This document shows, one piece after another, positions 3,855 through 57,837 of a DNA stretch of 64,000 nucleotides. The stretch's first letter is position 1. Every line of letters begins with the position of its first letter. The notes under the pieces were generated by a model. The model did not search any database. It had not been told where the DNA came from and was given only the letters and a program-made list of their open reading frames with translations. The translations under genes and the position numbers were made by a program. This DNA is from Thermodesulfobacteriota bacterium (GTDB lineage: Bacteria > Desulfobacterota > QYQD01): the NCBI GenBank assembly GCA_040755415.1, contig JBFMAZ010000082.1, positions 148 through 64,147 of the forward strand, in the 5' to 3' direction.

Positions 3855-4373
3855 CTAATGCAGATACCGGGGTCTTGGTTCCTGATCCGGAATTTTACTT
3901 ATGCCTCCCCATAAATCCTTAAGTTCAAGCAACCGTTCAAAATTTTTAATAAATGTCCCTAAGTGCATGTTGATGGTCTTACGGGCCTCCAGGAGCACAT
4001 TTTCTCGTTTTAAATAATCTACGTAAGCCTCGAGTATTTGCCTGTCCATTTCGGACAGAGAAAGAAATTTAAGCCCGGCATGCCAGGCCCTTTCCTTTCT
4101 CTGCCAGACTACCTCGCCCGTAATAGAAAGAGTATGCATACCTTCCGGTAATTGAAGACAAAACTGTAAGGCTCCATCCCAATTAGGCTCTTCCAGGCTG
4201 GCTATCTCTGCCCCATGAACAGAGAGACCTATCAAGTAAATATTTTTGGCCTTTTCTACATCTAACTCCTGCGGCACGGAGAGAAGGACCCTTTCGCTGC
4301 AGCGCCTTTCGCTCACATCGTTTCTATGCATAACCGACCCCCCCTCGACAACTTTTTGGGCAAGCAATTTCAA
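3855..4373 (-). CDS. PilZ domain protein (putative c-di-GMP receptor)
   Basis: RCSER (RxxxR) followed by IGLSVHGA (variant of D/NxSxxG), then VVWQRK...GLKF beta-barrel pattern. Confidence 0.55.
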   Translation of the reverse strand: MKLLAQKVVEGGSVMHRNDVSERRCSERVLLSVPQELDVEKAKNIYLIGLSVHGAEIASLEEPNWDGALQFCLQLPEGMHTLSITGEVVWQRKERAWHAGLKFLSLSEMDRQILEAYVDYLKRENVLLEARKTINMHLGTFIKNFERLLELKDLWGGISKIPDQEPRPRYLH

Positions 4374-5536: not shown

Positions 5537-5623
5537 ATCTTTTATTTTTATCTTCTATATGGCCTGGATTATACCACAGATGACCACTGATAAATCAAGC
5601 CAAAATATATGATATGAAAAATG

Positions 5624-5785
5624 GTATCAGTTTAGCTGTTTGAAAAAGTATTCTTAAATCCCTCCCAACCTCCCTTTTCCAAAGGGAGGAGAAACACTTC
5701 CCCCTTTGGAAAAGGGGGATTGAGGGGGATTTTGGCCCTTATAGCGCCTTGCTTAGGTATATTTTTCAAAAACCTAAAATGTTAC
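5624..5785 (+). mobile_element. 162-bp MITE (family A), diverged copy, with 8-bp TSD GAAAAATG
   Basis: Termini are GTATCAGTTTAGCTGTTTGAAAAAG ... TTTTTCAAAAACCTAAAATGTTAC. It is flanked by GAAAAATG at 5616..5623 and 5786..5793. Confidence 0.85.
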
Positions 5786-5867
5786 GAAAAATGAAATATC
5801 CGACTGCTCAGACAGATAAACGGCCATGGGAACATCGTAAGTATGTTCAGGTGATTAAACGGAAAAT

Positions 5868-15406: not shown

Positions 15407-16452
15407 TAAGGATACCTGACCGCATTAGGAAATGTCTTAGGTGGCAGGTGCTGGTGGGTGTATATGTTGTACTTTTTCTCGCCTATCAGGTTTTCACCTT
15501 TCTCTATATCCCGCCGGAAAGGCATGCAAAGCCAAAGGTTATCTATATCCGGCCAAAGACCAAATTTCTGACTATTTCCCGTCAATTGCAAGACGAAGGC
15601 ATTATTAGAAGCAGTTTTAAATTTGCTATATTGGCAAAACTCACCGGGTCAGTCAACCGGATAAGAGCCGGAGAATATGAACTAAGCCCCTCTATGCTCC
15701 CCCGGGAAGTGCTCAATAAATTGGTCAGTGGCTGGGTTATTCAGCACATGGTCACTATCCCCGAAGGCTACAACATCTATCAGATTGCCGACACACTCGA
15801 TAAGGAAGGGTTAGTAAAAAAACAGGAATTTCTGGCTAGGGCCTTTGACCAGGATCTTATATTATCCCTTGGACTTGAGGGGAAAAGCCTGGAGGGTTAT
15901 CTCTTCCCGGATACCTATGAATTTTGGCGGGATATGCAGACGGAAGACGTCCTTCGTAAGATGACAGGCCGGTTTAAGAAGATATACTCACAGAAGTATG
16001 CAGAAGAGGCTAAAGGACAAGGCCTGTCCATGCGTGAGGTTGTAACGCTGGCCTCCATTATTGAGAAGGAAACCGGTGTCCCGGGCGAGAGGAGACTTAT
16101 TTCGGCTGTCTTCCATAACCGGTTGCGTCGCAGTATGCCCTTGCAGGCAGATCCGACGGTTATTTATGGGATACGCGATTTTAACGGCAACCTCACCAGA
16201 AAGGATCTGCAGACACTAACCCCTTATAATACATACATAATCAAAGGATTACCGCCAGGCCCCATAGCCTGCCCGGGGGAGGAGGCAATCAAAGCGGCCC
16301 TTAATCCTGCAAAAAAAAGGTATTTGTATTTTGTCTCCAAGAATGACGGTTCACATCATTTCTCAAGCACCCTTGAAGCCCACCAACGGGCCGTCGCCAT
16401 ATACCAAAAAAAGCCTGTCTCAGACGTCCCGGCCTCTGACACTACTGATTAA
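15403..16452 (+). CDS. mltG: endolytic murein transglycosylase MltG (YceG)
   Basis: N-terminal TM segment, TIPEGY, ASIIEKET and LQADPTVIYG motifs. Confidence 0.85.
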   Translation: MIRIPDRIRKCLRWQVLVGVYVVLFLAYQVFTFLYIPPERHAKPKVIYIRPKTKFLTISRQLQDEGIIRSSFKFAILAKLTGSVNRIRAGEYELSPSMLPREVLNKLVSGWVIQHMVTIPEGYNIYQIADTLDKEGLVKKQEFLARAFDQDLILSLGLEGKSLEGYLFPDTYEFWRDMQTEDVLRKMTGRFKKIYSQKYAEEAKGQGLSMREVVTLASIIEKETGVPGERRLISAVFHNRLRRSMPLQADPTVIYGIRDFNGNLTRKDLQTLTPYNTYIIKGLPPGPIACPGEEAIKAALNPAKKRYLYFVSKNDGSHHFSSTLEAHQRAVAIYQKKPVSDVPASDTTD

Positions 16453-16570
16453 TTGGTTTCCATCCGAAAATCCCCCTGTATCCCCCTTTTCCAAAGGGGG
16501 ATTTCAATATTTCCCCCCTTTAGCAAAAGGGGGGGGTGGGGGGATTTGGTAGTTTTCGGATGGGAACTAA
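16453..16570. mobile_element. MITE-like element, family B (two CCCCCTTT..AAAGGGGG hairpin modules)
   Basis: TTGGTTTCCATCCGAAAA ... TTTTCGGATGGGAACTAA. It starts directly after the mltG stop and is about 95% identical to 27061..27180. Confidence 0.8.
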
Positions 16571-16629
16571 TTAGTTTTTATTAAGGAACATCGGGTCCCA
16601 CAAAAAGAGTGGGTTCGGAATCTTTTAGC

Positions 16630-26648: not shown

Positions 26649-26914
26649 GGTGTATATCTCCCAATATCTTATTTGCTTTTAGTGGGTTGACGATAATGAA
26701 TGTCATTAGTCAATAGTCATTTGTCACTGGTAAAAGGGGGGGTAATTTTCCGCACCTAACCAATGACCGATGACTAATGACCAGTGACGTTGCCTGTAGT
26801 TACTATACCCTAACGGTCATAAATGCAAATACTTTTTCCCGTTGTAAAGGTTCGAACGTCTGAACATGTTTTAAGATTAAGTTTGCCGAATCCCCTGCCG
26901 ATAGTACATATAAC

Positions 26915-27060
26915 TAGTCTCCATCCGAAAACCTCCCCTCCCCTAGCGGGAGGGGACTAAGGGGAGGGGGAACATCTCGAAATTGCATAACCTTTTCACC
27001 CCCACCCTAGCCCTCCCCCGTCAAAGGGGGAGGGATATAGGCTTTCCGGCTGGAACTAAC
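26915..27060. mobile_element. MITE-like element, family B variant
   Basis: TAGTCTCCATCCGAAAAC ... GGCTTTCCGGCTGGAACTAAC with GGGAGGGG-type hairpin modules. Confidence 0.7.
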
Positions 27061-27180
27061 TGGTTTCCATCCGAAAATCCCCCTGTATCCCCCTTTTCCA
27101 AAGGGGGATTTCAATATTTTCCCCCCTTTAGCAAAGGGGGGGGGTGGGGGGATTTGGCAGTTTCCGGATGGACACTAACT
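27061..27180. mobile_element. MITE-like element, family B, tandem to the previous one
   Basis: Near-identical to 16453..16570. It ends 27 nt before the fdhA-like ATG. Confidence 0.8.
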
Positions 27181-27206
27181 AGTAATTCCCCCTGGAGAGA
27201 GCACCC

Positions 27207-29234
27207 ATGCATAGCGTCTTAACCACCTGCCCTTTCTGTGCCTGCGGCTGCGGATTATATCTACACGTAGAAAATGAAAGGATAGTGGGTGTCACTCCCA
27301 GCAAGAAACACCCCATCTCCCGCGGCAACCTGTGCGTGAAGGGGTGGAACAGTATAGAGCACGTCCGGCATGCGGAGCGGCTGCGCGAGCCATTGATCCG
27401 AAAGAACGGGAAACTGTTCAGGACCGGCTGGGACCAGGCCCTCAAACGTGTTTCCCTTGAACTGCTCAAGATTAAGAAAAAATATGGGGGCGAATCCATA
27501 GGCATACTCTCCTCGGCCAAATGCACCAATGAAGAGAATTATCTCTTGATGAAGCTCGGCCGCGCCGTATTGAAAACCAACAACATCGACCATTGCGCCC
27601 GGCTATGCCACTCTCCCAGCGTCCTGGGGTTAACCAATGCCTTTGGTTCCGGGGCCATGACCAACTCCATCTCTGAGCTGGCCGGCGCCGAGGTCATCCT
27701 GGTCACCGGCTCCAACACCACCGAACAACACCCGCAGATTGCCCGCTTCATATTCGAGGCCCTGGACAAAGGCGCCAAACTGATCGTCATAGACCCCAGA
27801 CGCATCGAACTCAGCAGATTCGCCCATATCCATCTGAGGCCCCGCCTGGGTACAGACGTAATATGGCTGAACGGCATGATGAAAATCATCCTGGATGAGG
27901 GGCTGTTAGATGACTCTTTTATCAAGATGCGCACGGAGAATTTCCCGGAATTCAGGAAATTCCTCTCCCGGTTCGACCTGGGCCAGGTAGAGGCGATAAG
28001 CGGCATATCCCTGGAAGACCTGGGACGGGCCGCCAAGATTTATGCCGGCGCCAAAAGGGCCATCATTATATATTCTATGGGGATTACGCAGCATGTCTCC
28101 GGCACGGACAACGTGGAGTCCATCGCCAACCTGGCCATGATGACCGGCCACGTAGAACAGGAAATTACCGGCGTATTTCCCTTGCGCGGACAGAACAACG
28201 TACAGGGGGCCTGTGATATGGGCGCCCTGCCCGGAATGCTGAGCGGCTACCAGAGGGTTGATGATCCGGCCGTTCTGGATAAATTCTCACGGGCCTGGAA
28301 TACCGGCCTGCCTGCCGCCCCGGGGTTAAGCAGTGTGGATATGCTCCATGAGACAGGAAGAATAAAAGGCATGTTTATCATGGGAGAAAACTCCATGTTA
28401 AGCCACCCGGATATGAAAAACGTCAGGGCTTCCATGGAACATCTGGATTTCCTGGCCGTGGCGGATATCTTCCTTACCGAAACCGCGGAAGTCGCAGATG
28501 TAATCCTGCCTGCCGCCGCCTTTGCCGAGAAAGACGGCACGGTAACCAGTACGGAGCGGCGCATCCAGAGGATGCGGAAGGCCATCCCGCCCGTCCACCT
28601 GTCTAAACCGGACTGGCAGATAATTATCGAGTTGGCCCGGCGCATGGGATACCCTATGGACTACGAATCCCCAGCCGAGGTCATGGAGGAAATCGCCTTG
28701 CTCACCCCCATCTACGGGGGCGTTTATTATGACCGGCTGGAGACAATCCAGGGGCTGCAATGGCCGTGCCCTGACCGCAATCATCCCGGAACGACATATC
28801 TGCACAAAAAATCATTCGCGCGGGGTAAGGGGCTGTTTTCCTGTATCGCTTACCGGCCGCCGGACGAAACGCCTGACAAGAAATATCCCTTTGCCTTGAC
28901 GACGGGACGCGTGTATGAACACTGGCATACCGGCACTATGACCAGAAGGATATCCATATTGAAACGGGAATGCCCGGAAGGGTTTATAGAAATAAGCCCC
29001 GCAGATGCGCGGGCATTGGGAATAATAAATGGAGAGCCGGTCAAGGTCATCTCTCCCCGCGGAGAAGTGACTACCAGGGCCAGATTAGTCGAGGGCCTCC
29101 CCGGTAAAACGCTCTTTATGCCCTTTCACTTCCGGGAGGCCCCGGCCAATGCATTGACCAACCATGCCGTCGATCCCCAGGCCCGGATACCGGAGCTGAA
29201 GATATGCGCCGTGCGCCTGGAAAAGGTGACCTGA
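27207..29234 (+). CDS. molybdopterin oxidoreductase, formate dehydrogenase alpha-like (cytoplasmic, Cys-type)
   Basis: N-terminal 4Fe-4S motif CPFCACGCG...C. Active-site region HCARLCHSPSV aligns with the CARVUHGPSV type, with Cys in place of Sec. No Tat signal; 675 aa. Confidence 0.85.
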   Translation: MHSVLTTCPFCACGCGLYLHVENERIVGVTPSKKHPISRGNLCVKGWNSIEHVRHAERLREPLIRKNGKLFRTGWDQALKRVSLELLKIKKKYGGESIGILSSAKCTNEENYLLMKLGRAVLKTNNIDHCARLCHSPSVLGLTNAFGSGAMTNSISELAGAEVILVTGSNTTEQHPQIARFIFEALDKGAKLIVIDPRRIELSRFAHIHLRPRLGTDVIWLNGMMKIILDEGLLDDSFIKMRTENFPEFRKFLSRFDLGQVEAISGISLEDLGRAAKIYAGAKRAIIIYSMGITQHVSGTDNVESIANLAMMTGHVEQEITGVFPLRGQNNVQGACDMGALPGMLSGYQRVDDPAVLDKFSRAWNTGLPAAPGLSSVDMLHETGRIKGMFIMGENSMLSHPDMKNVRASMEHLDFLAVADIFLTETAEVADVILPAAAFAEKDGTVTSTERRIQRMRKAIPPVHLSKPDWQIIIELARRMGYPMDYESPAEVMEEIALLTPIYGGVYYDRLETIQGLQWPCPDRNHPGTTYLHKKSFARGKGLFSCIAYRPPDETPDKKYPFALTTGRVYEHWHTGTMTRRISILKRECPEGFIEISPADARALGIINGEPVKVISPRGEVTTRARLVEGLPGKTLFMPFHFREAPANALTNHAVDPQARIPELKICAVRLEKVT

Positions 29235-32014: not shown

Positions 32015-35000
32015 CTAATGTGACGTCTCCTCGATTGTATTATAAATTTCGTCAATTTTTTTCTGTACCTCTATGGTCTTTTGAATTGCAGTGACAATTC
32101 TGCAATAAGTCCGTATCTCGTCAAGGGACAGTATTCGCTCTTTTCTGTCCTTAAGCCATTTATCGCAGACCTGATAACCGCCGATTTGATAAGCCCATAC
32201 ATCAGGGGGAATGCCTTCAAAGTATTGTGCCTTGTTGATGAAAAGGAGACCAAATCCCCCCTCACCCCCCTTTACTAAAGGGGAGATATTGTGAGAAGAA
32301 TCCTTGCTTCCCCTCTTTGGCAAAGAGGGGTTAAGGGGAGATTTTTCGAATAATTCATATCTCAACTTTTCTACCCTGTTATCCCCTTTCCCCTGAAATC
32401 TTGCAATCGGTAAATCGAGGTCAGCCGATTTAAGCAGGTGCAGGTCAACAAGCCTGTTGCCATAGTCGGACATTTTCTCGAACAGCTTGTAGTCCTTTGT
32501 AAACGGCACCCTTGGAAAGTCTATCTTCAGGAACGCTGCATATTTTGTCCTGTAAGTCTCTGAATAAAGAACGGCATAAATGTAATAGAAGATTTCCTCA
32601 GGGGAAGGAGTTTTCTTATAGGCTTTTGATAATTCATCAATAACCTTGGCAGATAAGTTAGTCTTTTTTACTCCATAATCTGCCTTCGGTTCAAACAGCA
32701 TCAATACGCCGCCAAAGGACCGCTTCTTTTTATCCTTGACTTGATAGATATAGAGAGGAAAAAGATACGACCGTTCTCGTGTCTCTAACGAGACGGTACA
32801 GTCGTTAATAATGCTGTTCGTACATAACGCGTGTTTAAATTCTGCATTGATCTGGCGATTTGTGATCACCCCTAAGTTCTCTTTCAACATATGCTGCATT
32901 ACTTCTTTCCGGGATCGCTCAATGACTGCGTCGTGGTAGAAAATCCACCGCTCATCGAATGGGCGATACAATATCTTTGTAATGGCTTGATCCCAGTCAG
33001 GATCTTTGACGACGCGCTCCCTCGCATCTCTCAGTGTCCAGTTAGTTTTATCTTTCAGTTTATAAGTCTGTTGTATTATTTCATCAGGTAATTTCTTGTC
33101 CCTGAACTGCAATATTCTTCTCCGCAGTCGATCCCGATCAAAATCAATAACGAATTCATCGCGTGAGGTTACGATCCCCACACTGCTCACCGGAAAGATA
33201 TCGGTAATCTTCATGTGCCTTTCATAAACAGATGACAACTTTTCATCGCGGGGGAAGAACAGATAGAATTCGGATTTAGGGGAAAGCCTCTTCCATTTGG
33301 TTGTTGTAATATCGTGCTTATTAAGCCAATTGTATTTCTTTTCTCTGAGCCCCCATAGTTCGGAATGGAAAACTTTTGACCCGCCTCTTAACCTCCCTTT
33401 GCCAAGAGGGGTTTTCTTGATAAAGACAGCAATAGCAACTCCTTGCTGAATATCAAAGACATTCTCATCTCTTGACCCGTCAGGGCCTTTTTCCTTCTTG
33501 AGGCTGTTGCCGTGCAGGTCAAGGATATACATCACGTCGAAACTCCGCATCAGCGACTGACGCATCCCCCTAAAAGTCGGATTATCGAGATAGCTGTGGT
33601 TTGTAATAAACCCGAGGACCCCTTGGCCGGCCTGATCGATCTTCCACTGGGCAAAACGGATGAACTTTACATAATCGTCCTGAAGCCACTTGGGGTTCTT
33701 TTCATTAAGCGGTCTCCCATCGACTTGATGGTACGCCTTAATCTCGCTTGAGATCCAGTCACCGATATTTGACGAATGTCCCGAATAGGGCGGGTTTCCC
33801 AGAATCACGAGTATTGGTTGTTCTTTCTTCACCAGACCGGCCAGATGAGACTCTTCAGACAATGAGGCCATCCCGGGCAGTTCTGTTTGAGCCACCTCTT
33901 CCATTTCGAGCGTATTGGTAAGATAAAGTTTCACCCGGTCATCCCTCTGTAACCTGTACTCTAATTCCTCCAGAAGGAAAGACATCTTCAGATGCCCGAC
34001 GGCATAGGGGGCCATCATCAATTCAAAGGCATAGAGGTTTTTCAGGATATGTTCTTTTATAAAATTCTCCCTGCCTCCCTCTCCGTATTTGGAAACAAAT
34101 TCATCAATTGCAAGTTTTGCCGCCTCTGCCAAAAAGGCAAGCGTTCCTGCCGCAGGGTCTAAGACAGTCACGTTCTTATCTGCAAATCCATCAGGTTTAT
34201 TGAAATGCCCTTTCAGAATGTTATGTAAGGAGCGGACTATGTAGGAAACCACAGGCTCAGGCGTGTAATACACACCCCTCATCTCCCTTGTCTTCGGGTC
34301 ATACGCGGCAAGGAAGGTTTCGTAGAAATGAACGATAGGGTCTTTCCCTTTGCCCTCATGGAAAAATTGATGAAGTATCTTGCTCACATCCGTGAGGGAA
34401 AGGATTTCCGATATATCATCAACAATCCATTCCATCTGCTGGGGGAGGGCGCCCAATGAAACAAACTGGAAAACGTCTCTCAGTATTCCAATTGTTTGGG
34501 GTATGTTGTGATAGGCAAGTTTCCTATTGAAGCCATTTTCTGAACGAGTCCTGGCTGCAAATAGGCCGTAGGTGATAGTCTGTGCGTAAAGGTCCGAGAA
34601 TTCGTCTTCCGTAAGGCCGCTGATAAGATAATCCTTAAAAGCCTTGTAAAATCCCCTGATAAATCCCTTGCCTGCACTCTGTTCTTCCCTCAGTTCCTGC
34701 GCTATAACCTCATCCTTTAAAAAGCGTGTCCTTTTGGCAAGTTCAACGGCAAGGTTCTTTGCGTCATATACTTTCGGTAACGAAAAGGAAAAGAACTTTC
34801 CCAGCAGTTGCAGGAATTCAGGTTCCTTTTCGACAGGTGGGGTAGTTTTCAGCTTATGAACTACGTATGGCCTTCCGACAATGACTTTATCCGTTCTGAC
34901 ACCGTTATGGTAAAGCCTGAACTCAAAGAAATTGGTAAGAATAACATTCGGAAAAGTATGCAAGTATCTCTTTAGCTGCTCTGTTTCCTCTATCCTGTCA

Positions 35001-35302
35001 AGATTTTCAATGGTAGGGTCTTTAGCCTCAATGTATCCCGTGATATGTTGTTTGCCGTCCCACACTCTGAAGTCCGGATTACCTGCTTCCGTCTTTTTGG
35101 GAAGAATCGTTATATGAAAATTTTTCTTTCCGGTTAAGCCGCAATACCCATCAAGAAGAGATTTCAGGACCGGGTAATAGCTTTCTTCCCTTGCATCCCC
35201 TCGTGTGCCGGCATCGGCTATCTGTTTTAAATAGTCTTTAAGCATGACCAACCTATCGATGATTTCCGGGCCGGCGCTCGTAGCCTCGTTGATTCTCAAC
35301 AT
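32015..35302 (-). CDS. single-chain type IIG/IIL (MmeI-like) restriction-modification enzyme: PD-ExK nuclease + N6-adenine methyltransferase + C-terminal specificity domain
   Basis: PDFRVWDGKQHITGYIEAKD (D-X9-ExK as in the MmeI family), AdoMet motif VLDPAAGTLAF, catalytic NPPY (ILGNPPYSGH). C-terminal IGGYQVCDKWLKDRK is typical of type ISP/IIG specificity domains. Confidence 0.8.
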   Translation of the reverse strand: MLRINEATSAGPEIIDRLVMLKDYLKQIADAGTRGDAREESYYPVLKSLLDGYCGLTGKKNFHITILPKKTEAGNPDFRVWDGKQHITGYIEAKDPTIENLDRIEETEQLKRYLHTFPNVILTNFFEFRLYHNGVRTDKVIVGRPYVVHKLKTTPPVEKEPEFLQLLGKFFSFSLPKVYDAKNLAVELAKRTRFLKDEVIAQELREEQSAGKGFIRGFYKAFKDYLISGLTEDEFSDLYAQTITYGLFAARTRSENGFNRKLAYHNIPQTIGILRDVFQFVSLGALPQQMEWIVDDISEILSLTDVSKILHQFFHEGKGKDPIVHFYETFLAAYDPKTREMRGVYYTPEPVVSYIVRSLHNILKGHFNKPDGFADKNVTVLDPAAGTLAFLAEAAKLAIDEFVSKYGEGGRENFIKEHILKNLYAFELMMAPYAVGHLKMSFLLEELEYRLQRDDRVKLYLTNTLEMEEVAQTELPGMASLSEESHLAGLVKKEQPILVILGNPPYSGHSSNIGDWISSEIKAYHQVDGRPLNEKNPKWLQDDYVKFIRFAQWKIDQAGQGVLGFITNHSYLDNPTFRGMRQSLMRSFDVMYILDLHGNSLKKEKGPDGSRDENVFDIQQGVAIAVFIKKTPLGKGRLRGGSKVFHSELWGLREKKYNWLNKHDITTTKWKRLSPKSEFYLFFPRDEKLSSVYERHMKITDIFPVSSVGIVTSRDEFVIDFDRDRLRRRILQFRDKKLPDEIIQQTYKLKDKTNWTLRDARERVVKDPDWDQAITKILYRPFDERWIFYHDAVIERSRKEVMQHMLKENLGVITNRQINAEFKHALCTNSIINDCTVSLETRERSYLFPLYIYQVKDKKKRSFGGVLMLFEPKADYGVKKTNLSAKVIDELSKAYKKTPSPEEIFYYIYAVLYSETYRTKYAAFLKIDFPRVPFTKDYKLFEKMSDYGNRLVDLHLLKSADLDLPIARFQGKGDNRVEKLRYELFEKSPLNPSLPKRGSKDSSHNISPLVKGGEGGFGLLFINKAQYFEGIPPDVWAYQIGGYQVCDKWLKDRKERILSLDEIRTYCRIVTAIQKTIEVQKKIDEIYNTIEETSH
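32245..32350. mobile_element. family B hairpin element inserted in frame inside the RM gene
   Basis: ACCAAATCCCCCCTCACCCCCCTTTACTAAAGGGG...CCCCTCTTTGGCAAAGAGGGG. It is translated as FEKSPLNPSLPKRGSKDSSHNISPLVKGGEGGFG. Confidence 0.7.
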
Positions 35303-41951: not shown

Positions 41952-42800
41952 ATGGAACAGATTAGAATTGGCAAATTCAGTTTTATTAACACCAGCCCTA
42001 TATATTACCCACTCGAACACATAGTAGGCCTAAACGGCTTTCAGGTTATAGAGGGATCCCCTTCGGAACTAAACGCCCGCTTTTTCCGAGGGGAATTGGA
42101 CATCAGCGTCATATCCTCACAGGAATACGGTCTCCATGCGGAAAAATACTTCCTCCTCCCTGAACTGGCCATTGTCTCGCAGGGAACGGTCAAAAGCGTG
42201 CTCTTTTTCAGTAAGTATCCGCTTAAGGCCCTCAGCGGACGCCGCATCCTTATAACCGAGAAGTCACAAACCTCGGTAGCCCTCCTGAAGATTATCTTGG
42301 AAGAATTTTATGAGGTATTTCCCATTTATGAGACAGGCGACCTGTCCGCGAAAGACGTCCATTCCCGGGAGGTCGCCGGCTTTCTGGCTATCGGCGACGA
42401 GGCCCTCAGGTTTCGCATCGAGAGTCAGGAGCCTTATATTATTGACCTCGGCGAGACCTGGAAGAAGTTTGCCGGCCTGCCTTTTGTATATGCAGTGTGG
42501 GCAGTGCGGCGGGAATTCTATAATCAGTTTCCGCAGAAGGTATGGGAGGCCTGCCGCCTCCTTAAAGAGTCACGGGATAAGGGCCTTAAGACCCTGGAAA
42601 AGATCGGAGGCCGTTTTGCTTCACATATACCCATGTCCAAGGAGGCCTGTCTGGCCTACTTGCGAACCCTGTGTTTTGACTTAACCCCGGAGGCGCTGGA
42701 GGGAATGAGGCTGTTCTTCCGCTATCTGGTCAAACGCGGGGAATACCCTTCTCCGGTGAACATAGAATTTGTACCGCAACTAGACGGGATGACGGCCTGA
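41952..42800 (+). CDS. mqnA: chorismate dehydratase MqnA-like (VitK2 biosynthesis family)
   Basis: IRIGKFSFINTSPIYYPL...PSELNARFFRGELDISVISSQEY pattern. Confidence 0.7.
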   Translation: MEQIRIGKFSFINTSPIYYPLEHIVGLNGFQVIEGSPSELNARFFRGELDISVISSQEYGLHAEKYFLLPELAIVSQGTVKSVLFFSKYPLKALSGRRILITEKSQTSVALLKIILEEFYEVFPIYETGDLSAKDVHSREVAGFLAIGDEALRFRIESQEPYIIDLGETWKKFAGLPFVYAVWAVRREFYNQFPQKVWEACRLLKESRDKGLKTLEKIGGRFASHIPMSKEACLAYLRTLCFDLTPEALEGMRLFFRYLVKRGEYPSPVNIEFVPQLDGMTA

Positions 42801-43697
42801 ATGTCAGATGAAACACTCGTGTCTCAAAGAGACACAAAGAACAATGGAGAAAATCCCCCCTCACCCCCCTTTAATAAAGGGGGGGATACATTAAGTCCTC
42901 TTTTGAAAAAAGGGGGAGAGCCGTCAAATCCCCCTTTGGGAAAAGATGGAGGCCCATCAATTCCCCCTTTGGAAAAGGGGGATACAGGGGGATTTTCTGG
43001 TGAAAAGAAAGCCTTCGTAGAAAAGAAATTTTCATCCATCACCCCGCGCTACGATTTCCTTAATTCCTTGCTGAGTCTAAATATTGACCGCTACTGGCGA
43101 TGGGTGACCGCCCGTGAGTTAGACAATTATACGGGGGGACCAATTCTCGACCTCTGCGCCGGCACACTGCCCTTAAGCCTTAGCATAGCCGGACGCAGGC
43201 CCGAACGATATGTGTTGGCCCTCGATCTCTGCCGGGATATGCTGGCCTACGGTCGCAACAGACTAAATGGCCGGGTAGCAGGCCGGCAAATTATCCCGAT
43301 TTGTGCAGACGGAGAAGAAATACCCTGTTGCGATAATAGCTTTTCCGGGATTACCGTGGCCTTTGGAGTGCGTAACCTGAGCAATCTGGATAAGGGCCTT
43401 AAGGAGATGTGGCGCGTCCTCCGGCCCGGGGGGAAACTGGTCATCCTTGAGTTTTCTCGCCCTAAAAATCCGGTCATGCGGACGCTTTATTTTTTCTACC
43501 TCATGCGGATCCTGCCATATATCGGCGGCCGGATATCTGGCGACGAAGAGGCTTACCGCTATCTGGCGAATTCTATCCGCCTCTTTTACTCGCCGGAAGA
43601 ATTAGCGCAAAAAATGAAAAATACCGGTTACGTAAAGGTAACCTATCGCCCGCTCACGGCCGGTATAGTGACTTTATATACTGGAGAAAAGCCTTGA
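42801..43697 (+). CDS. menG: demethylmenaquinone methyltransferase (UbiE/MenG) with repeat-derived N-terminal extension
   Basis: Conserved core starts at KKFSSITPRYDFLNSLLSLNIDRYWR. SAM motif ILDLCAGT. About 65 aa upstream of the core are encoded by a family B element. Confidence 0.85.
   Translation: MSDETLVSQRDTKNNGENPPSPPFNKGGDTLSPLLKKGGEPSNPPLGKDGGPSIPPLEKGDTGGFSGEKKAFVEKKFSSITPRYDFLNSLLSLNIDRYWRWVTARELDNYTGGPILDLCAGTLPLSLSIAGRRPERYVLALDLCRDMLAYGRNRLNGRVAGRQIIPICADGEEIPCCDNSFSGITVAFGVRNLSNLDKGLKEMWRVLRPGGKLVILEFSRPKNPVMRTLYFFYLMRILPYIGGRISGDEEAYRYLANSIRLFYSPEELAQKMKNTGYVKVTYRPLTAGIVTLYTGEKP
42819..43009. mobile_element. family B element (three hairpin modules) inside the menG reading frame
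   Basis: GTGTCTCAAAGA...GGGGGATACAGGGGGATTTTCTGGTGAAAAG. Its right end matches the left end of 16453..16570 in inverted orientation. Confidence 0.75.
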
Positions 43698-43759
43698 TAT
43701 TCACCGCGGAGAACATAAAGAAAACATCTCAAATCTGAAATTTGAGATTTGAAATTCTT

Positions 43760-43921
43760 GTAACACTTTAGCTGTTTGAAAAGAGCTAGTCGTCCAGAAA
43801 ACGGCGCCTCGAAAATCCCCCTTAATCCCCCTTTTTCAAAGGGGGAAATGTTTCTCCTCCCTTTGGAAAAGGGAGGTTGGGAGGGATTTTAAAATACTTT
43901 TTCAAACAGCTAAACTGATAC
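43760..43921 (-). mobile_element. 162-bp MITE (family A) with 8-bp TSD AAATTCTT
   Basis: By base-by-base comparison it is identical to the reverse complement of 57167..57328. It is flanked by AAATTCTT at 43752..43759 and 43922..43929. Confidence 0.9.
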
Positions 43922-43986
43922 AAATTCTTCTCTTTGCGTGCTCTGCGCTAAATATTACATTCCGAGCGCTAAAAGGGAGGTTCGCT

Positions 43987-45429
43987 TTGGGCTATAAGAA
44001 TCTGCAGGAATTTATACGCCTTCTGGAAAAAGAAGGAGAACTAAAAAAAATTACCGAGCCGGTCAGCCCCTATCTGGAGATTACTGAGATCACCGACCGC
44101 GTCTGTAAAAAAGGCGGGCCTGCCCTCCTCTTCACCAATGTCGTCGGTCATGACATGCCGGTCCTGATGAACGCCTTTGGATCATACCGACGCATGTGCC
44201 TGGCCCTCCAGGTAGGCGACTTTAATGAGATCGGAAAAGATATCCTGAACTTCCTGGAGGCCGAAGCGCCGGATACCCTAATCAAAAAGCTCAAGATGAT
44301 ACCAAAGCTTAAACGGCTGGCCGATATGTTTCCGAAGATGGTGAGCAAGGCCCCCTGCCAGGAAGTGATAATAAAAGATAATATTGACCTTAGGCTTCTT
44401 CCGGCGCTACACTGCTGGCCTAAGGATGGCGGACGTTTTATCACCCTCCCTCTGGTCTTTACCAAACACCCGGAGACCGGCGTGCGTAACTGCGGGATGT
44501 ACCGCATACAGGTCTTTGACGCCGGCACCACGGGTATGCACTGGCATACCCACAAGGGCGGGGCCCAGCATTACCGCATAGCCGAAAAACGCGGCGAGCG
44601 GCTGGAAGCGGCGGTAGCCATCGGCGCAGACCCGGCTACAACTTATGCCGCCACGGCCCCTCTGCCGGAAGACATCGACGAGATGGTCTTCTCCGGCTTT
44701 CTCCGCTCCGAACCGGTCGAGATGGTGCAGTGCCTTACCGTCGATCAGCAGGTGCCGGCCGAGGCGCAGATTATCCTCGAGGGCCATGTAGAACCGGGCG
44801 AAAGACGCGTGGAAGGCCCCTTCGGTGACCATACCGGCTATTATTCACTGGCGGATAAGTATCCGGTCTTTCATGTCACCTGTATCACCCATCGTAAAGA
44901 GGCCGTCTATCCGGCCACCATCGTGGGCCGCCCGCCCATGGAAGATTGTTATATGGCCAAGGCCACAGAGCGCATATTCCTGCCGCTGATAAAAAAACAG
45001 CTCTCGGAGATTGTGGATATGAACCTACCCCTGGAAGGGGTTTTCCATAATCTGGCCTTTATCTCTATCGATAAGCGCTATCCCGGACACGCCCGGAAGG
45101 TGATGCACGCCCTGTGGGGGATGGGCCAGATGATGTTCACCAAGATCATCGCCGTCTTTGACCGGGAAGTCGATGTCCAGGACCTGTCACAGGTCCTCTG
45201 GCGTATCGGCAACAACGTCGATCCGCGGCGGGATACGGTTATTACCGATGGGCCGGTCGATGCCCTGGATCATGCCTCACCCCTGCCCCACTATGGCGGG
45301 AAGATGGGCATCGATGCCACGCGCAAGTGGCCGGAGGAGGGATTTGAGCGTGACTGGCCGGAGGTCATCGAGATGGATGAGGCCGTGAAAAAGAAAATCG
45401 ATGCCATCTGGGGAAAGCTGGGTCTATAG
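43987..45429 (+). CDS. UbiD-family (prenyl-FMN-dependent) decarboxylase, menaquinone biosynthesis
   Basis: GGPALLFTNV, NCGMYR, HWHTHKGG, GPFGDHTGYY motifs. TTG start with GGGAGG RBS. Confidence 0.9.
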   Translation: MGYKNLQEFIRLLEKEGELKKITEPVSPYLEITEITDRVCKKGGPALLFTNVVGHDMPVLMNAFGSYRRMCLALQVGDFNEIGKDILNFLEAEAPDTLIKKLKMIPKLKRLADMFPKMVSKAPCQEVIIKDNIDLRLLPALHCWPKDGGRFITLPLVFTKHPETGVRNCGMYRIQVFDAGTTGMHWHTHKGGAQHYRIAEKRGERLEAAVAIGADPATTYAATAPLPEDIDEMVFSGFLRSEPVEMVQCLTVDQQVPAEAQIILEGHVEPGERRVEGPFGDHTGYYSLADKYPVFHVTCITHRKEAVYPATIVGRPPMEDCYMAKATERIFLPLIKKQLSEIVDMNLPLEGVFHNLAFISIDKRYPGHARKVMHALWGMGQMMFTKIIAVFDREVDVQDLSQVLWRIGNNVDPRRDTVITDGPVDALDHASPLPHYGGKMGIDATRKWPEEGFERDWPEVIEMDEAVKKKIDAIWGKLGL

Positions 45430-45472
45430 TGAATTTATCTGCATCGGGCAGACAAAGGGCGATAAAACACCC

Positions 45473-45662
45473 ATGTCTCAAAGAAATATAAAGAACAAAG
45501 AAAACAATCCCCCCTTACCCCCCTTTAGTAAAGGGGGGGATATTTTAAGCCCCCCCTTGAAAAAAGACGGGGGTCTGTCGATTCCCCTTTTGGGAAAGAA
45601 TGGGCACCCATCAATTCCCCCTTTGGAAAAGGGGGATACAGGGGGATTTTCTGGTGAAAAAA
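45473..45662. mobile_element. family B element (three hairpin modules) inside the ubiX reading frame
   Basis: ATGTCTCAAAGA...GGGGGATACAGGGGGATTTTCTGGTGAAAAAA, colinear with 42819..43009. Confidence 0.75.
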
Positions 45663-46228
45663 TACAGAAACGTTACATCGTGGCCTTGACCGGGGCGAGC
45701 GGCATGCCCTATGCCGTATCCCTCTTACAGAAATTAGCGGCAAAAAATGTGGAGATACACGGCCTCGTGTCTGCGGCCGGGGCCCAGGTATTGAAGCTGG
45801 AAACCGGCCTTTCTACCTCAGAGGTGGGCCGGTATATGACCAGGCACTACGACGAAAAAGACTTTGCCGCGCCGGTAGCCAGCGGGTCTTTCCCCCACGA
45901 CGGCATGATTATTATCCCTTGCACCATGGGCACCCTGGGCGCCATAGCCAACGGTATATCAAATAACCTTATCCATCGGGCGGCGGATGTGACCTTAAAG
46001 GAAGGCCGAAGGCTCTTATTGATCTTGCGGGAGACCCCGCTGAACCGGATACACATAAGCAATATGCTGCGCCTGGCGGAGGCCGGAGCGACCATCATGC
46101 CGGCCATGCCCGGATTTTATCATCAACCCGCGAGCGTTGATGATTTGGTCGTTACCTTCGTGGACAGAATCCTGGATGTCCTCGGCCTGCCCGATCCAAA
46201 GGCCAAAAGGTGGGGTATCGACTCATGA
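45473..46228 (+). CDS. ubiX: UbiX-family flavin prenyltransferase with repeat-derived N-terminal extension
   Basis: Core RYIVALTGASGMPYAV...IIPCTMGTL. The first ~60 codons are a family B element. Alternative starts are 45401 (ORF track) or an internal GTG. Confidence 0.8.
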   Translation: MSQRNIKNKENNPPLPPFSKGGDILSPPLKKDGGLSIPLLGKNGHPSIPPLEKGDTGGFSGEKIQKRYIVALTGASGMPYAVSLLQKLAAKNVEIHGLVSAAGAQVLKLETGLSTSEVGRYMTRHYDEKDFAAPVASGSFPHDGMIIIPCTMGTLGAIANGISNNLIHRAADVTLKEGRRLLLILRETPLNRIHISNMLRLAEAGATIMPAMPGFYHQPASVDDLVVTFVDRILDVLGLPDPKAKRWGIDS

Positions 46229-47073
46229 TACGAAAGACCCATACCTTCCTGGAGATGATTAAATTCGAGCACACCATCTTTGCCCTGCCCTTTGCCTTCA
46301 TAGGGGCCTTTCTGGCGGCGGGCGGCGTGCCGGCTCCGGCAAAATGTCTCTGGATACTTTTGGCCATGGTCGGGGCGCGCACGGCCGCTATGGGCTTTAA
46401 CCGTATAGTCGATCTCCCTTATGACCGCAAAAATCCCCGCACCGCAGGCCGGGCCTTGCCGCAAGGCATGATAAAGGTCAAAGAGGCCCGGCTCTTTGTG
46501 ATCCTGGCCTCCCTGCTCTTCTTCTTCGCGGCCTATAAGCTGAACCGGCTGACCTTTATGCTGTCCCCCCTGGCCCTGGCCACAGTCCTTGCTTACTCTT
46601 ACACCAAACGATTTACCTGGTTGTCGCATATATTCCTGGGTCTGGCCCTGGGCATTGCCCCTGCCGCCGGATGGATAGCTGTGAAAGGCAGTTTCGATGC
46701 CGCGCCTCTTATCCTGAGCGCCGGGGTCATATTTTGGGTGGCAGGTTTTGACACCATTTATGCCTGTATGGATTTTGAGTTTGATCGCCGCGAAGGGCTG
46801 CACTCGATACCCTGCAAATTCGGCAAAGAAAGGGCACTTGCCTTTGCCGTCGGGTTCCATATCCTGGCTTTTATGTTTTTTCTCTATACCGGCATTATGG
46901 CCGGATTAAGGTGGGTCTATTATGCGGGCATCGCCCTGACGGCGATGGCTATGGTGCTGCAACATATATTCGTCACGCCCAAGGACCTTTCTAAAATAAA
47001 CCTCTCCTTCTTCACCATGAACGGCATAATCAGCATCACCCTCTTTCTGGCTACCTGGGCCGCACTTTCCTGA
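46210..47073 (+). CDS. UbiA-family prenyltransferase (MqnP / 4-hydroxybenzoate polyprenyltransferase-like)
   Basis: NRIVDLPYDRKNPRT and DFEFDRREGLHS Asp-rich motifs; polytopic membrane protein. Confidence 0.85.
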   Translation: MGYRLMIRKTHTFLEMIKFEHTIFALPFAFIGAFLAAGGVPAPAKCLWILLAMVGARTAAMGFNRIVDLPYDRKNPRTAGRALPQGMIKVKEARLFVILASLLFFFAAYKLNRLTFMLSPLALATVLAYSYTKRFTWLSHIFLGLALGIAPAAGWIAVKGSFDAAPLILSAGVIFWVAGFDTIYACMDFEFDRREGLHSIPCKFGKERALAFAVGFHILAFMFFLYTGIMAGLRWVYYAGIALTAMAMVLQHIFVTPKDLSKINLSFFTMNGIISITLFLATWAALS

Positions 47074-56500: not shown

Positions 56501-57837
56501 GTGAAGATACCCTTTTCATACAGTCTCCGCAATCTTTGGACACGCCGCCTTACCACCGTTCTTACCATAGCGGGCATGGCCCTTGTTGTTTTTGTATTCT
56601 CAGCGATTCTCATGCTTGCCGAGGGGCTGCAAAAGACCTTGGTGGATACCGGCTCATATGATAACGCGGTGATAATCCGCAAGGCGGCGGGATCAGAGGT
56701 GCAGAGCGGGGTGGAGCGTCCGCAGGCTTCCATAATCGAAACCCAGCCGGAAGTGGCTATAGGCGCAGACGGCAAACGCCTGCTGGTAAAGGAATTGGTC
56801 GTCCTTATCGTTCTACCTAAACGCGGAACTGATAAACCGGCCAATGTCGTCATAAGGGGAATCTCCGGGAGTTCAATGCTTCTTCGGCCGCAGGTAAGAT
56901 TGACGGAGGGGCGCATGCCGAGACCGGGCTCTTCAGAGATAATCGCCGGACAGAGCGTGGCCAAGAGGTTTAAGGGAGGAGGCATCGGGGAGACGCTCCG
57001 CTTCGGCATGAGGGACTGGACCGTGGGAGGGATATTTGACGCAGGGAATACCGGCTATGCCTCAGAGATATGGGGCGATGTGGATCAACTCATGCAGGCC
57101 TTCCGGCGTCCTGTCTATTCTTCGATCTTGTTCAGGCTGCGTGATTCTTCGGAATTTGAAAGATTCGTATCAGTTTAGCTGTTTGAAAAAGTATTTTAAA
57201 ATCCCTCCCAACCTCCCTTTTCCAAAGGGAGGAGAAACATTTCCCCCTTTGAAAAAGGGGGATTAAGGGGGATTTTCGAGGCGCCGTTTTCTGGACGACT
57301 AGCTCTTTTCAAACAGCTAAAGTGTTACAAAGATTCAAGGCGCGCATCGAAAGCGACCCCCGGCTCACGCTTGAGGCATTGCGTGAGACACGGTACTATG
57401 AAAAACAGTCGGAGATGATGGCAAAATTCCTCCGCATCCTCGGCATTACTCTGACGTTGATATTTTCTCTCGGCGCCGTTATCGGCGCAATGATTACCAT
57501 GTACGCCGCGGTTGCCAACAGAACCGATGAAATCGGCACCATGCGCGCACTCGGTTTCCAGCGACGGAGTATTCTGGCAACCTTTGTCATGGAGTCACTG
57601 CTCCTTGGATTTATCGGGGGTTTTATCGGACTGTTTTTCGCCTCTTTCTTGCAGCTTTTCACCATTTCCACCATGAACTTCCAGACTTTTTCCGAGCTTG
57701 CCTTTTCATTTTCGCTGACCTTCGGGATCATTTACAAGGCTATGGCCTTTGCGCTGATAATGGGCTTTGTAGGCGGTGTTCTTCCCGCAGTCAGGGCGGC
57801 GAGGATGAGTATTGTGGAGTCATTGAGGGCAAGTTGA
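56501..57837 (+). pseudogene. second FtsX/MacB-type ABC permease, interrupted by a 162-bp MITE
   Basis: ORFs 56501..57178 and 57322..57837. Removing the element and one TSD copy restores ...SSEFERFKARIESDP... in frame. Confidence 0.8.
57167..57328 (+). mobile_element. 162-bp MITE (family A) inserted in the permease gene, TSD AAAGATTC
   Basis: Termini GTATCAGTTTAGCTGTTTGAAAAAG / CTTTTCAAACAGCTAAAGTGTTAC. Duplicated AAAGATTC at 57159..57166 and 57329..57336. Confidence 0.9.

Follow-up and report, generated by a model that had tools for sequence, protein, structure and literature searches.

An (A)TGAAA-ended palindromic repeat in the menaquinone operon of a Thermodesulfobacteriota bacterium, probably read through at the N-termini of MenG and UbiX

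In a stretch of 64,000 nucleotides from a Thermodesulfobacteriota bacterium (contig JBFMAZ010000082.1; hereafter the window), the menG and ubiX genes of a menaquinone operon carry at their 5' ends two copies of the same palindromic repeat. This element is non-autonomous and resembles a miniature transposable element of the inverted-repeat type (MITE), being small, multi-copy, devoid of a transposase gene and present at sites that are filled in some genomes and empty in others. It is probable, in our judgement, that it is a selfish insert which is read through as a tolerated N-terminal stretch in both enzymes.

Results

The same repeat in menG and ubiX

Positions 42807-43006 and 45461-45660 of the window form a direct repeat of 200 nt with 84% identity. 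This similarity is far beyond chance, as the left-end 20-mer matches both sites and two matches were obtained in 0 of 100 shuffles. A preliminary description of this DNA had reported that menG and ubiX carry one repeat at their 5' ends, read in the same frame, and the repeat search and the open reading frames (ORFs) confirm this. The alignment also confirms that start codons occupy matching positions of the element, since ATG 45473 in ubiX is homologous to GTG 42819 in menG. The peptide of about 60 residues that had been called near-identical is indeed shared over a stretch of 63 residues, but it is less similar than described, with 47 of the 63 residues (75%) being identical.

The menG copy

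The features of the menG copy are the following:
42801-43697, + strand: menG/ubiE-type methyltransferase ORF (Pfam Ubie_methyltran, residues 69-297)
42808-43005, + strand: element copy, with the left ATGAAA at 42808-42813, four hairpin modules and the right end ...GGGGGATTTTCTGGTGAAA
42819-42835, + strand: left-unit hairpin GTGTCTCAAAGAGACAC
42819-42821, + strand: GTG flagged in the preliminary description, in frame, 6 codons downstream of ATG 42801, in the stem of the left-unit hairpin
42987-42992, + strand: right-end GGGGGA resembling a Shine-Dalgarno (SD) sequence, followed by a 7-nt spacer and GTG 43000-43002, which is out of frame and opens a 6-codon ORF

The insertion adds 63 codons after codon 3 of menG, in frame and stop-free (length 192, 0 mod 3); a MenG peptide across it would contain SDETLVSQR...GFSGEKKAFVEK. 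The element ends just before KKAFVEKKFSSITPRYDF, where the Ubie_methyltran profile begins. With regard to the related genomes, the site is empty in metagenome-assembled genomes (MAGs) MAG273, Yes70-07 and SpSt-1152 (loci L188, L189 and L190; 89-93% amino acid identity), and in the more distant locus L001. The empty site reads TAA/TGA-ATG TCA AAC GAA GAA AAG AAA GCC, which gives MSNEEKKAF.... As the three nearest relatives are without the element, the insertion in menG is likely recent.

The native ATG 42801 is retained and adjoins the upstream stop (TGAATG) exactly as in the orthologues. The proposal that menG starts at the element-borne GTG 42819 is not upheld, because the ORF extends further upstream, as far as ATG 42801, and all element-free orthologues start there. 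This GTG is thus superfluous in menG. After the element, a canonical in-frame start is next met at TTG 43068, inside the Pfam match. If menG is functional, the insert must therefore be translated, as there is no canonical start between the element and the conserved domain.

The ubiX copy and its start codon

The ubiX copy is a composite, with the following features:
45401/45473-46228, + strand: ubiX ORF, 251 amino acids from ATG 45473 (Pfam Flavoprotein, residues 66-236)
45430-45659, + strand: composite element between ubiD and the ubiX core, starting directly after the ubiD stop
45430-45467, + strand: left unit 1 (TGAAT...GATAAAA)
45468-45514, + strand: left unit 2, which holds ATG 45473
45518-45539 and 45617-45635, for example, + strand: two of the four hairpin modules
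45641-45646, + strand: right-end SD-like GGGGGA, followed by a 7-nt spacer and GTG 45654-45656, out of frame, opening an 11-codon ORF, with an A6 run at 45657-45662
45655-45659, + strand: right terminus TGAAA
45680-45682, + strand: internal GTG (V of IVALTG); no other canonical in-frame start lies between the element and the core

The element does not begin at 45473, as had been thought, given that the composite copy starts at 45430. Counted from ATG 45473, the conserved core of UbiX begins at residue 66 (KRYIVALTGASG); the product would start MSQRNIK... and the join between element and core would read ...GDTGGFSGEK-IQKRYIVALTG. In a structural model obtained with AlphaFold2 from a 15-sequence alignment, residues 1-61 exhibit a predicted local distance difference test (pLDDT) score below 50 and no secondary structure, and a confident flavoprotein core follows.

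The ubiX site is filled in the window, in MAG273 (L026, same length) and in L001, whose copy lacks 99 nt (33 codons) by comparison. L002 and L003 have an empty site, and in both ubiD and ubiX overlap by ATGA and UbiX starts MTAHPSKRYIVALTG. All three filled genomes keep ATG 45473, and neither the 192-nt nor the 93-nt allele puts it out of frame. The left-unit hairpin is degraded in the ubiX copies (AUGUCUCAAAGAAAUAU) compared with menG (GUGUCUCAAAGAGACAC), which leaves ATG 45473 largely unpaired. When the element is removed, ubiX is left without an in-frame start; to reconstruct the ubiD-ubiX junction as it may have been before the insertion, one has to assume either that ATG became ATA at 45662 or that the A-run changed by 1 nt. 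As no canonical start is left next to the core, ubiX is most likely translated from ATG 45473, an assignment that the sequence moderately favours. A start downstream of this codon, or recoding, would be a minority outcome, and what probability remains is shared by loss of function and a start at the upstream ATG 45401. The earlier idea that the element supplies start codons thus holds for ubiX, where ATG 45473 is the best available start, and fails for menG.

Two observations speak against this start. ATG 45473 is preceded by a weak SD-like AAAGGG 13 nt upstream, whereas the neighbouring genes exhibit good SDs or ATGA overlaps. In addition, approximately 1/5 of the copies outside ORFs are also stop-free in the ubiX-type frame, which makes the open frame of ubiX no more than modest evidence for selection. 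These observations lend some weight to the alternative that the ubiX element is an untranslated intercistronic spacer, with initiation at GTG 45680, at ATA 45662, or at GTG 45654 with a -1 shift (MKKIQKRYIVALTG). The SD-like GGGGGA 7 nt upstream of GTG 45654 is ideal, in contrast to the poor SD of ATG 45473, the frame would be open by chance in approximately 20% of the copies outside ORFs, and the resulting MKKIQKRY would resemble the N-termini of the relatives (MTKTQKRY, MTAHPSKRY). Nevertheless, GTG 45654 is out of frame and meets a stop after 11 codons, and the -1 frameshift at the A6 run is an observation made on the sequence only. With a start at GTG 45680, the protein would lack residues 66-69 of the Pfam domain as well as a portion of strand beta-1, which the model places at residues 67-72. 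All homologues exhibit 2-6 residues plus K/R-R before this strand. Moreover, the frame is open and the ATG is kept in the 192-nt and 93-nt alleles of three genomes, and a spacer is inapplicable to menG, which has no downstream start. We consider this alternative unlikely.

With regard to the right end of the ubiX copy, the ORF opened by GTG 45654 encodes MKKYRNVTSWP* (window 45641-45689) and overlaps the ubiX N-terminus. The SD-like run lies approximately 10 nt before the A6 run, a geometry that resembles dnaX-type -1 frameshift sites, and a -1 slip there would give MKKIQKRYIVALTG. A terminator-like hairpin is present at 45518-45539 (CCCCCCTTTAGTAAAGGGGGGG then ATATTTTAAG) on the sense strand, inside the ubiX element and at a mid-operon position. 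Terminator-like sites in the region number 18 versus 6.8 expected, most of them repeat hairpins.

Anatomy and distribution of the element family

We scanned genomes at the species level (one genome per species) with the right-end motif GGGGGATTTTCNGGTGAAAA and obtained 69 loci, approximately 50 of which clearly carry the same element. The hosts are MAGs labelled Thermodesulfobacteriota or Deltaproteobacteria (MAG273, PowLak16_MAG11, Yes70-07, SpSt-1152 and others) and Nitrospirota/Thermodesulfovibrionia. A left-end profile (nhmmer) gave at least 76 matches, further or overlapping, of which only two lie within the window. The genome scan with the left-end 17-mer ACAAAGGACAATGAAAA gave mostly chance matches among those listed and was useful only after filtering with the nhmmer profile. 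In total, 54 copies with paired left and right ends were tabulated. This sample consists of 8-kb loci (numbered L) drawn by sequence pattern from many MAGs, not of one complete genome. The right-end pattern pre-selects copies with GGGGGA...GTG, but the left-end-selected subset (about 18 copies) gives the same three classes as described below.

The consensus element comprises, in this order, (A)TGAAA, a conserved left unit of approximately 45 nt, one to five GC hairpin modules, and GGGGGA-N7-(G/A)TGAAA. The left unit exhibits CAYNCATG and a short hairpin (GTCGCATAGCGAC or CCGCCTGCGGCGG), then ACAAAGGACAATGAAAAT. The GC hairpin modules are CCCCCCTTTnnnAAAGGGGGG in the subfamily of the window and other palindromes in other subfamilies, and the right end is GGGGGATTTTCAG, then (G/A)TGAAA. 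The canonical copy is approximately 126 nt long, and the window copies have two additional modules of approximately 33 nt. Among the 54 paired copies, which are spread over many contigs and genomes, sizes range from 90 to 250 nt and no transposase ORF is found inside. The left junction is nearly always ATGAAA and the right one is (A/G)TGAAA, so that TGAAA stands at both ends of nearly all copies. The extreme ends (ATGAAACAC... and ...GGTGAAA) are direct, not inverted, repeats, while an outer stem is formed by TGAAAAT..CCCCCC and GGGGGATTTTCA, which are subterminal. In the fold predicted for RNA or single-stranded DNA, AAAATCCCCCC pairs with GGGGGATTTT, both being subterminal; the ubiX copy reaches -93 kcal/mol (z -2.6) and the menG copy -99.4 kcal/mol (z -4.9).

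The left unit is also found alone or before quite different palindromes (e.g. GTCATTCCTGCGCAAGCGGGAATCC...), as in L097, L099, L112 and L118, and tandem left units are common (the ubiX copy of the window, L027, L052, L123). The shell of the element and its payload thus seem to evolve as separate modules.

No autonomous insertion sequence (IS) with the same ends was found among left...right pairs at most 3.5 kb apart in approximately 1.4 Mb of fetched loci, which is a small sample. The end pair in L028 was discarded as a candidate autonomous element, as it encloses a ROK kinase gene. In L168, at about 3960-4230 in minus-strand orientation, a left unit is directly followed by a 43-codon fragment, MEIIIEKGCGLDVHKGTVV..., which is presumably the truncated N-terminus of an IS110-family transposase and may reflect an IS that targets the repeat. 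A phage vector is not supported either, the single viral-contig match being a chance match without the element. Surveys at the protein level were abandoned: a 45-residue consensus compared with 5.8 billion proteins gave 3 candidates and 2 hits, and phmmer found 12 hits for the menG insert among 1.84 billion representatives, the peptide being too short and of too low complexity for a survey.

Frame survey

The 54 paired copies fall into three classes. Class A comprises 27 copies (24 with orthologues collapsed), in which the right-end (G/A)TG AAA opens an ORF of at least 60 codons with an MK start. The downstream genes encode KdsB, ribosomal protein L29, an ABC ATPase, QueC, MurI, FtsY, CheW and many lipoprotein signal peptides. 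Several Pfam profiles (CTP_transf_3, Ribosomal_L29, QueC, FMN_red, CheW) begin at position 1-2 within 1-12 residues of this start. The G-run lies 7-9 nt ahead of (G/A)TG in approximately 25 of the 27 copies, and the original SD and ATGAAA are still visible at the left junction in L041, L042, L047 and L056. The left TGA is the stop of the upstream gene in L042/L067, L030/L040, L180 and L140, which points to insertion on an ATGA overlap with both signals kept. Of the control [AG]TGAAA sites in these loci, 14-24% open a long ORF, versus 50% of the right ends of the element (p = 5e-10 to 3e-5). With regard to the portable start codon suggested in the preliminary description, the family does carry one, as the right-end SD-like run and (G/A)TG form a real gene start in these 27 of 54 copies. 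However, this codon differs from the one that had been flagged, and in the window neither right-end codon, GTG 43000 or GTG 45654, is in frame.

In eight class A copies (L023, L025, L030, L040, L047, L057, L063, L065), the ORF from the native left ATG crosses the element and stops at a GTGA overlap, which makes a leader ORF of 41-53 codons. This geometry is compatible with termination-reinitiation; for coupling to the gene, the sequence arrangement is suggestive only.

Class B comprises 11 copies (8 independent loci), including both window copies, in which the GGT GAA AAx frame is open inside a long ORF. Every one of these 11 copies has a length divisible by 3; in the other classes, the remainders 0, 1 and 2 all occur. 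The hosts include SMC, a prepilin leader and several proteins of approximately 650-1000 residues, and the peptide reads ...NPPSPPFTKGG...PPLEKGDTGGFSGEK, with the consensus ...ETHMSHGDTKDNENNPPSPPFTKGG...PPLEKGDTGGFSGEK. Orthologous pairs with unequal module counts stay in frame, as in ubiX (192 vs 93 nt) and in L021/L066 (249 vs 189 nt). Class C comprises the 16 copies without an adjoining long ORF.

The third frame is always closed by the TGA of GTGAAA. When compared with the 1/3 expectation, as had been advised earlier, the distribution over the three frames is 27/11/0, which is strongly non-random (p = 5e-7). Among the paired copies in long ORFs, no convincing out-of-frame or antisense intragenic copy was found; the long antisense ORFs over the element were rejected as shadows of sense genes.

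Discussion

Proposed explanation

Based on these observations, we propose that the element integrates at the hexamer (A)TGAAA and that the persisting copies are those that spare the host gene. On an ATG AAA start, the right end would rebuild (G/A)TG AAA behind an SD-like G-run, leaving the N-terminus unchanged. In the frame xxT GAA Axx, copies with a length of 0 mod 3 would be read through as a Pro/Gly/Lys-rich peptide, and in the third frame reading would meet TGA. In menG, translation from the native, coupled ATG 42801 would yield a 63-residue insert before the methyltransferase domain. In ubiX, an older composite copy would have replaced the ubiD-ubiX ATGA overlap, with a start at ATG 45473 and a disordered tail of approximately 60 residues. 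That the left junction is ATGAAA with hardly an exception speaks for a genuine target specificity. We infer that the menG and ubiX peptides, which are read here from the DNA, are actually made, and how the element transposes; its right-end SD and start may be an evolved adaptation or just the outcome of a survivorship filter.

Several points weigh against this explanation. The survey is made of pattern-picked 8-kb loci, with a right-end pattern that favours GGGGGA...GTG copies. No transposase partner lies between end pairs in the approximately 1.4 Mb of loci, and the empty menG sites fit both a 5-nt duplication and an insertion 3' of TGAAA by a TGAAA-ended element.

A more far-reaching version, which we find conceivable without favouring it, is that of a 'frame-proof' mobile element, one in which homing to ATGAAA and harmlessness in every frame have evolved. 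On starts it would rebuild SD plus (G/A)TG AAA, and on ATGA overlaps the upstream TGA stop would be kept too. In some length classes its own ORF could end at GTGA, coupling downstream translation. In the second frame it would be an open insert encoding a disordered peptide, and in the third the TGA would act as a stop. If true, the family would amount to a translation-initiation region that is mobile and has reached at least two phyla; in occasional cases it would be the sole start of a gene, as in ubiX.

Alternative explanations

The element could also be an exapted cis-regulatory RNA, a structured leader or coupling device whose coding capacity is incidental, an explanation that is compatible with the proposed one. 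The very stable folds (-93 and -99 kcal/mol; z -2.6 and -4.9), the pairing of the SD-like run with the left C-run in the outer stem, the eight start-type copies with the GTGA termination-reinitiation geometry, the terminator-like hairpin at 45518-45539 and the conservation of orthologous elements, which equals that of the coding flanks, are all consistent with such a role. Against it, Rfam has nothing at gathering thresholds and, at E <= 1, just sub-threshold noise from eukaryotic miRNAs and snoRNAs. Furthermore, the internal modules are interchangeable and highly variable between subfamilies, 16 of the 54 copies are intergenic without a following gene, and the filled/empty polymorphism points to selfish spread. 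As the principal explanation, regulation is hence rather improbable.

An N-terminal tag, one of the readings in the preliminary description, would here be selected for localisation, scaffolding or regulation and co-ordinate two menaquinone enzymes; this appears highly improbable. Two genes of one operon do bear the element in the same frame, and the ubiX copy is kept in three genomes. This copy is also 99.5% identical between the window and MAG273, with flanks at 92-93%: over the element and its flanks (45404-45712), there is one mismatch in about 308 nt relative to the MAG273 contig JBFMFO010000041.1 (L026), while the genes around this tract exhibit approximately 7 differences per 100 nt. Local recombination, gene conversion or unusual constraint could account for this. 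A general excess of conservation in the element was rejected, as four other orthologous pairs are 88.5-95.5% identical with flanks at 87.6-98.2%, which also argues against a tag. In addition, most copies of the family are not translated into a host protein. Finally, the shared peptide is absent from MenG of the three nearest relatives and of L001, occurs at internal positions of unrelated proteins such as SMC and the prepilin leader, differs in module number among orthologues and is predicted to be disordered; these properties indicate a selfish by-product and not a pathway tag. The other reading offered in the preliminary description, that of tolerated junk, is essentially supported by the same properties.

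That the insertions inactivated menG and/or ubiX, with frames open by chance, would fit a lineage-specific and possibly recent menG insertion and the fact that a copy with a length of 0 mod 3 and an open frame is not rare (about 0.2), but it is scarcely credible given that both ORFs are otherwise intact with full-length Pfam matches, that the ubiX insertion has persisted with an intact ORF through approximately 7-20% nucleotide divergence, and that none of the paired copies inside long ORFs is out of frame or antisense.

Operon setting and other repeats in the window

ORF calls and Pfam matches identify a futalosine-type menaquinone operon on the + strand of the window. In addition to menG and ubiX, it comprises:
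37611, + strand: TetR regulator, a member of the operon
38260 and 39497, + strand: two CofH/MqnC-type radical-SAM genes
40497, + strand: amidohydrolase
41952-42800, + strand: VitK2_biosynth (MqnA/D) gene, whose stop abuts the menG ATG (TGAATG)
43987-45429, + strand: ubiD-family decarboxylase, with stop TAG at 45427-45429
46210-47073, + strand: ubiA ORF, with an ATG at about 46225

The nearest public genome is Thermodesulfobacteriota MAG273 (JBFMFO01), with 92-93% nucleotide identity over ubiD-ubiX-ubiA.

A third repeat-derived in-frame insert is found at 32252-32345, in the minus-strand ORF 32015-35302, and reads ...EKSPLNPSLPKRGSKDSSHNISPLVKGGEGGFG.... This ORF encodes a Type ISP restriction-modification enzyme of 1095 amino acids (Pfam N6_Mtase, Eco57I, Type_ISP_C). 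The insert lies in the C-terminal specificity domain, with the CCCCCC/GGGGGG modules read on the opposite strand, and the domain match is approximately 40 residues over the profile.

A second repeat family is present at 43747-43930, 5617-5790 and 57154-57337, with the termini GTAACACTTTAGCTGTTTGAAAA / TTTTCAAACAGCTAAACTGATAC (GTAWCASTTTAGCTGTTTGAAAA / TTTTCAAACAGCTAAAVTGWTAC) and similar CCCCC/GGGGG hairpin modules. Its copy between menG and ubiD (43747-43930) is 97% complementary to 57158-57335 and lies outside the translated inserts, with which it shares one repeat ecosystem in the operon. A third shell family occupies 16450-16575, 26911-27050 and 27057-27185, with the termini TAACTGGTTTCCATCCGAAAA...TTTTCGGATGGRAACTAAYTAG. 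The tandem pair of this family lies upstream of an ORF at 27207. In its core, the family corresponds to the right part of the menG/ubiX element in inverted-complement form. Hairpin modules appear to be shared between different shells.

Implications

For annotation, N-terminal or internal stretches of the PPLxKGG type in these lineages are to be read as repeat insertions. Many gene starts sit at the right end of a repeat, and gene callers that prefer the longest ORF will misplace them. More generally, the family illustrates that start codons, operon junctions and coding sequence, which are the riskiest sites of a compact genome, are open to a selfish element if it brings a replacement ribosome-binding site (RBS) and start as well as an open frame, and in ubiX the host gene seems to have become dependent on the sequence of the element for initiation. 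For the study of insertion tolerance, the family also provides naturally occurring disordered insertions, both N-terminal and internal, in conserved enzymes.

Comparison with known systems

The read-through mode resembles that of the Rickettsia palindromic elements (RPEs), palindromes of approximately 100-200 nt that lie in frame in unrelated genes (Ogata et al. 2000; PMC10969869). As with RPEs, in-frame inserts in unrelated genes, here at 8 independent loci, add a conserved peptide and leave the host ORFs intact. In contrast to RPEs, which we compared by description only, the present element occurs in other phyla, would belong to another sequence family and exhibits the (A)TGAAA junction, variable modules of approximately 33 nt and a majority mode on start codons without fusion; it is thus an analogue and not a member.

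The start-type copies recall Neisseria REP2 (Morelle et al. 2003) and the Borrelia plasmid IR (Dunn et al. 1994), which lie directly before ORFs and contain a promoter, internal stem-loops, an RBS and a downstream start (PMC3184786). As in these repeats, the RBS and initiation codon of the downstream ORF lie inside the repeat. The differences are that this right-end codon is out of frame in both window copies, that TGAAA at both ends regenerates the native N-terminus, and that a second, read-through mode exists. No sigma-70-like promoter was found in 42808-43005 or in the body of 45430-45659; the sole nearby match, at 45401-45430, is in the 3' end of ubiD, and the total count equals the shuffle expectation.

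Mycobacterial interspersed repetitive units (MIRUs) are small repeats in polycistronic operons, with short ORFs that overlap flanking stop and start codons (Supply et al. 1997; PMC3184786). Their coupling-type overlaps are comparable to the GTGA overlap and to the left TGA that serves as the upstream stop here, but MIRUs are tandem direct repeats of 40-100 bp without a left/right shell and are unreported as in-frame inserts in enzymes. In ERIC/RU and the pneumococcal BOX/RUP, repeat ORFs are fused to gene ends (Delihas 2007; Croucher 2011; PMC3184786, PMC10969869); these share with the present family the non-autonomous, multi-copy and structured character, the filled/empty polymorphism and some in-frame fusions at gene ends. 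Specificity for a start-codon-like hexamer together with a built-in replacement SD and start is not described in PMC3184786 or PMC10969869, and the terms 'start codon' and 'ribosome' occur 0 times in the latter. IS200/IS605-derived elements (PATE/REPIN-like), which go with a Y1 HUH transposase (TnpA or RAYT), exhibit subterminal hairpins and insert 3' of a fixed tetra- or pentanucleotide that is not duplicated. In this respect, the pentanucleotide TGAAA followed by the left hairpin (GTCGCATAGCGAC or CCGCCTGCGGCGG) is suggestive but a lead only, no linked transposase having been found in the fetched loci. As in-frame repeats (RPE) and repeats with an RBS and ATG (REP2) are already known, the family does not represent a new principle; it works like a combination of RPE, REP2/IR and MIRU-type repeats and is a member of none of them.

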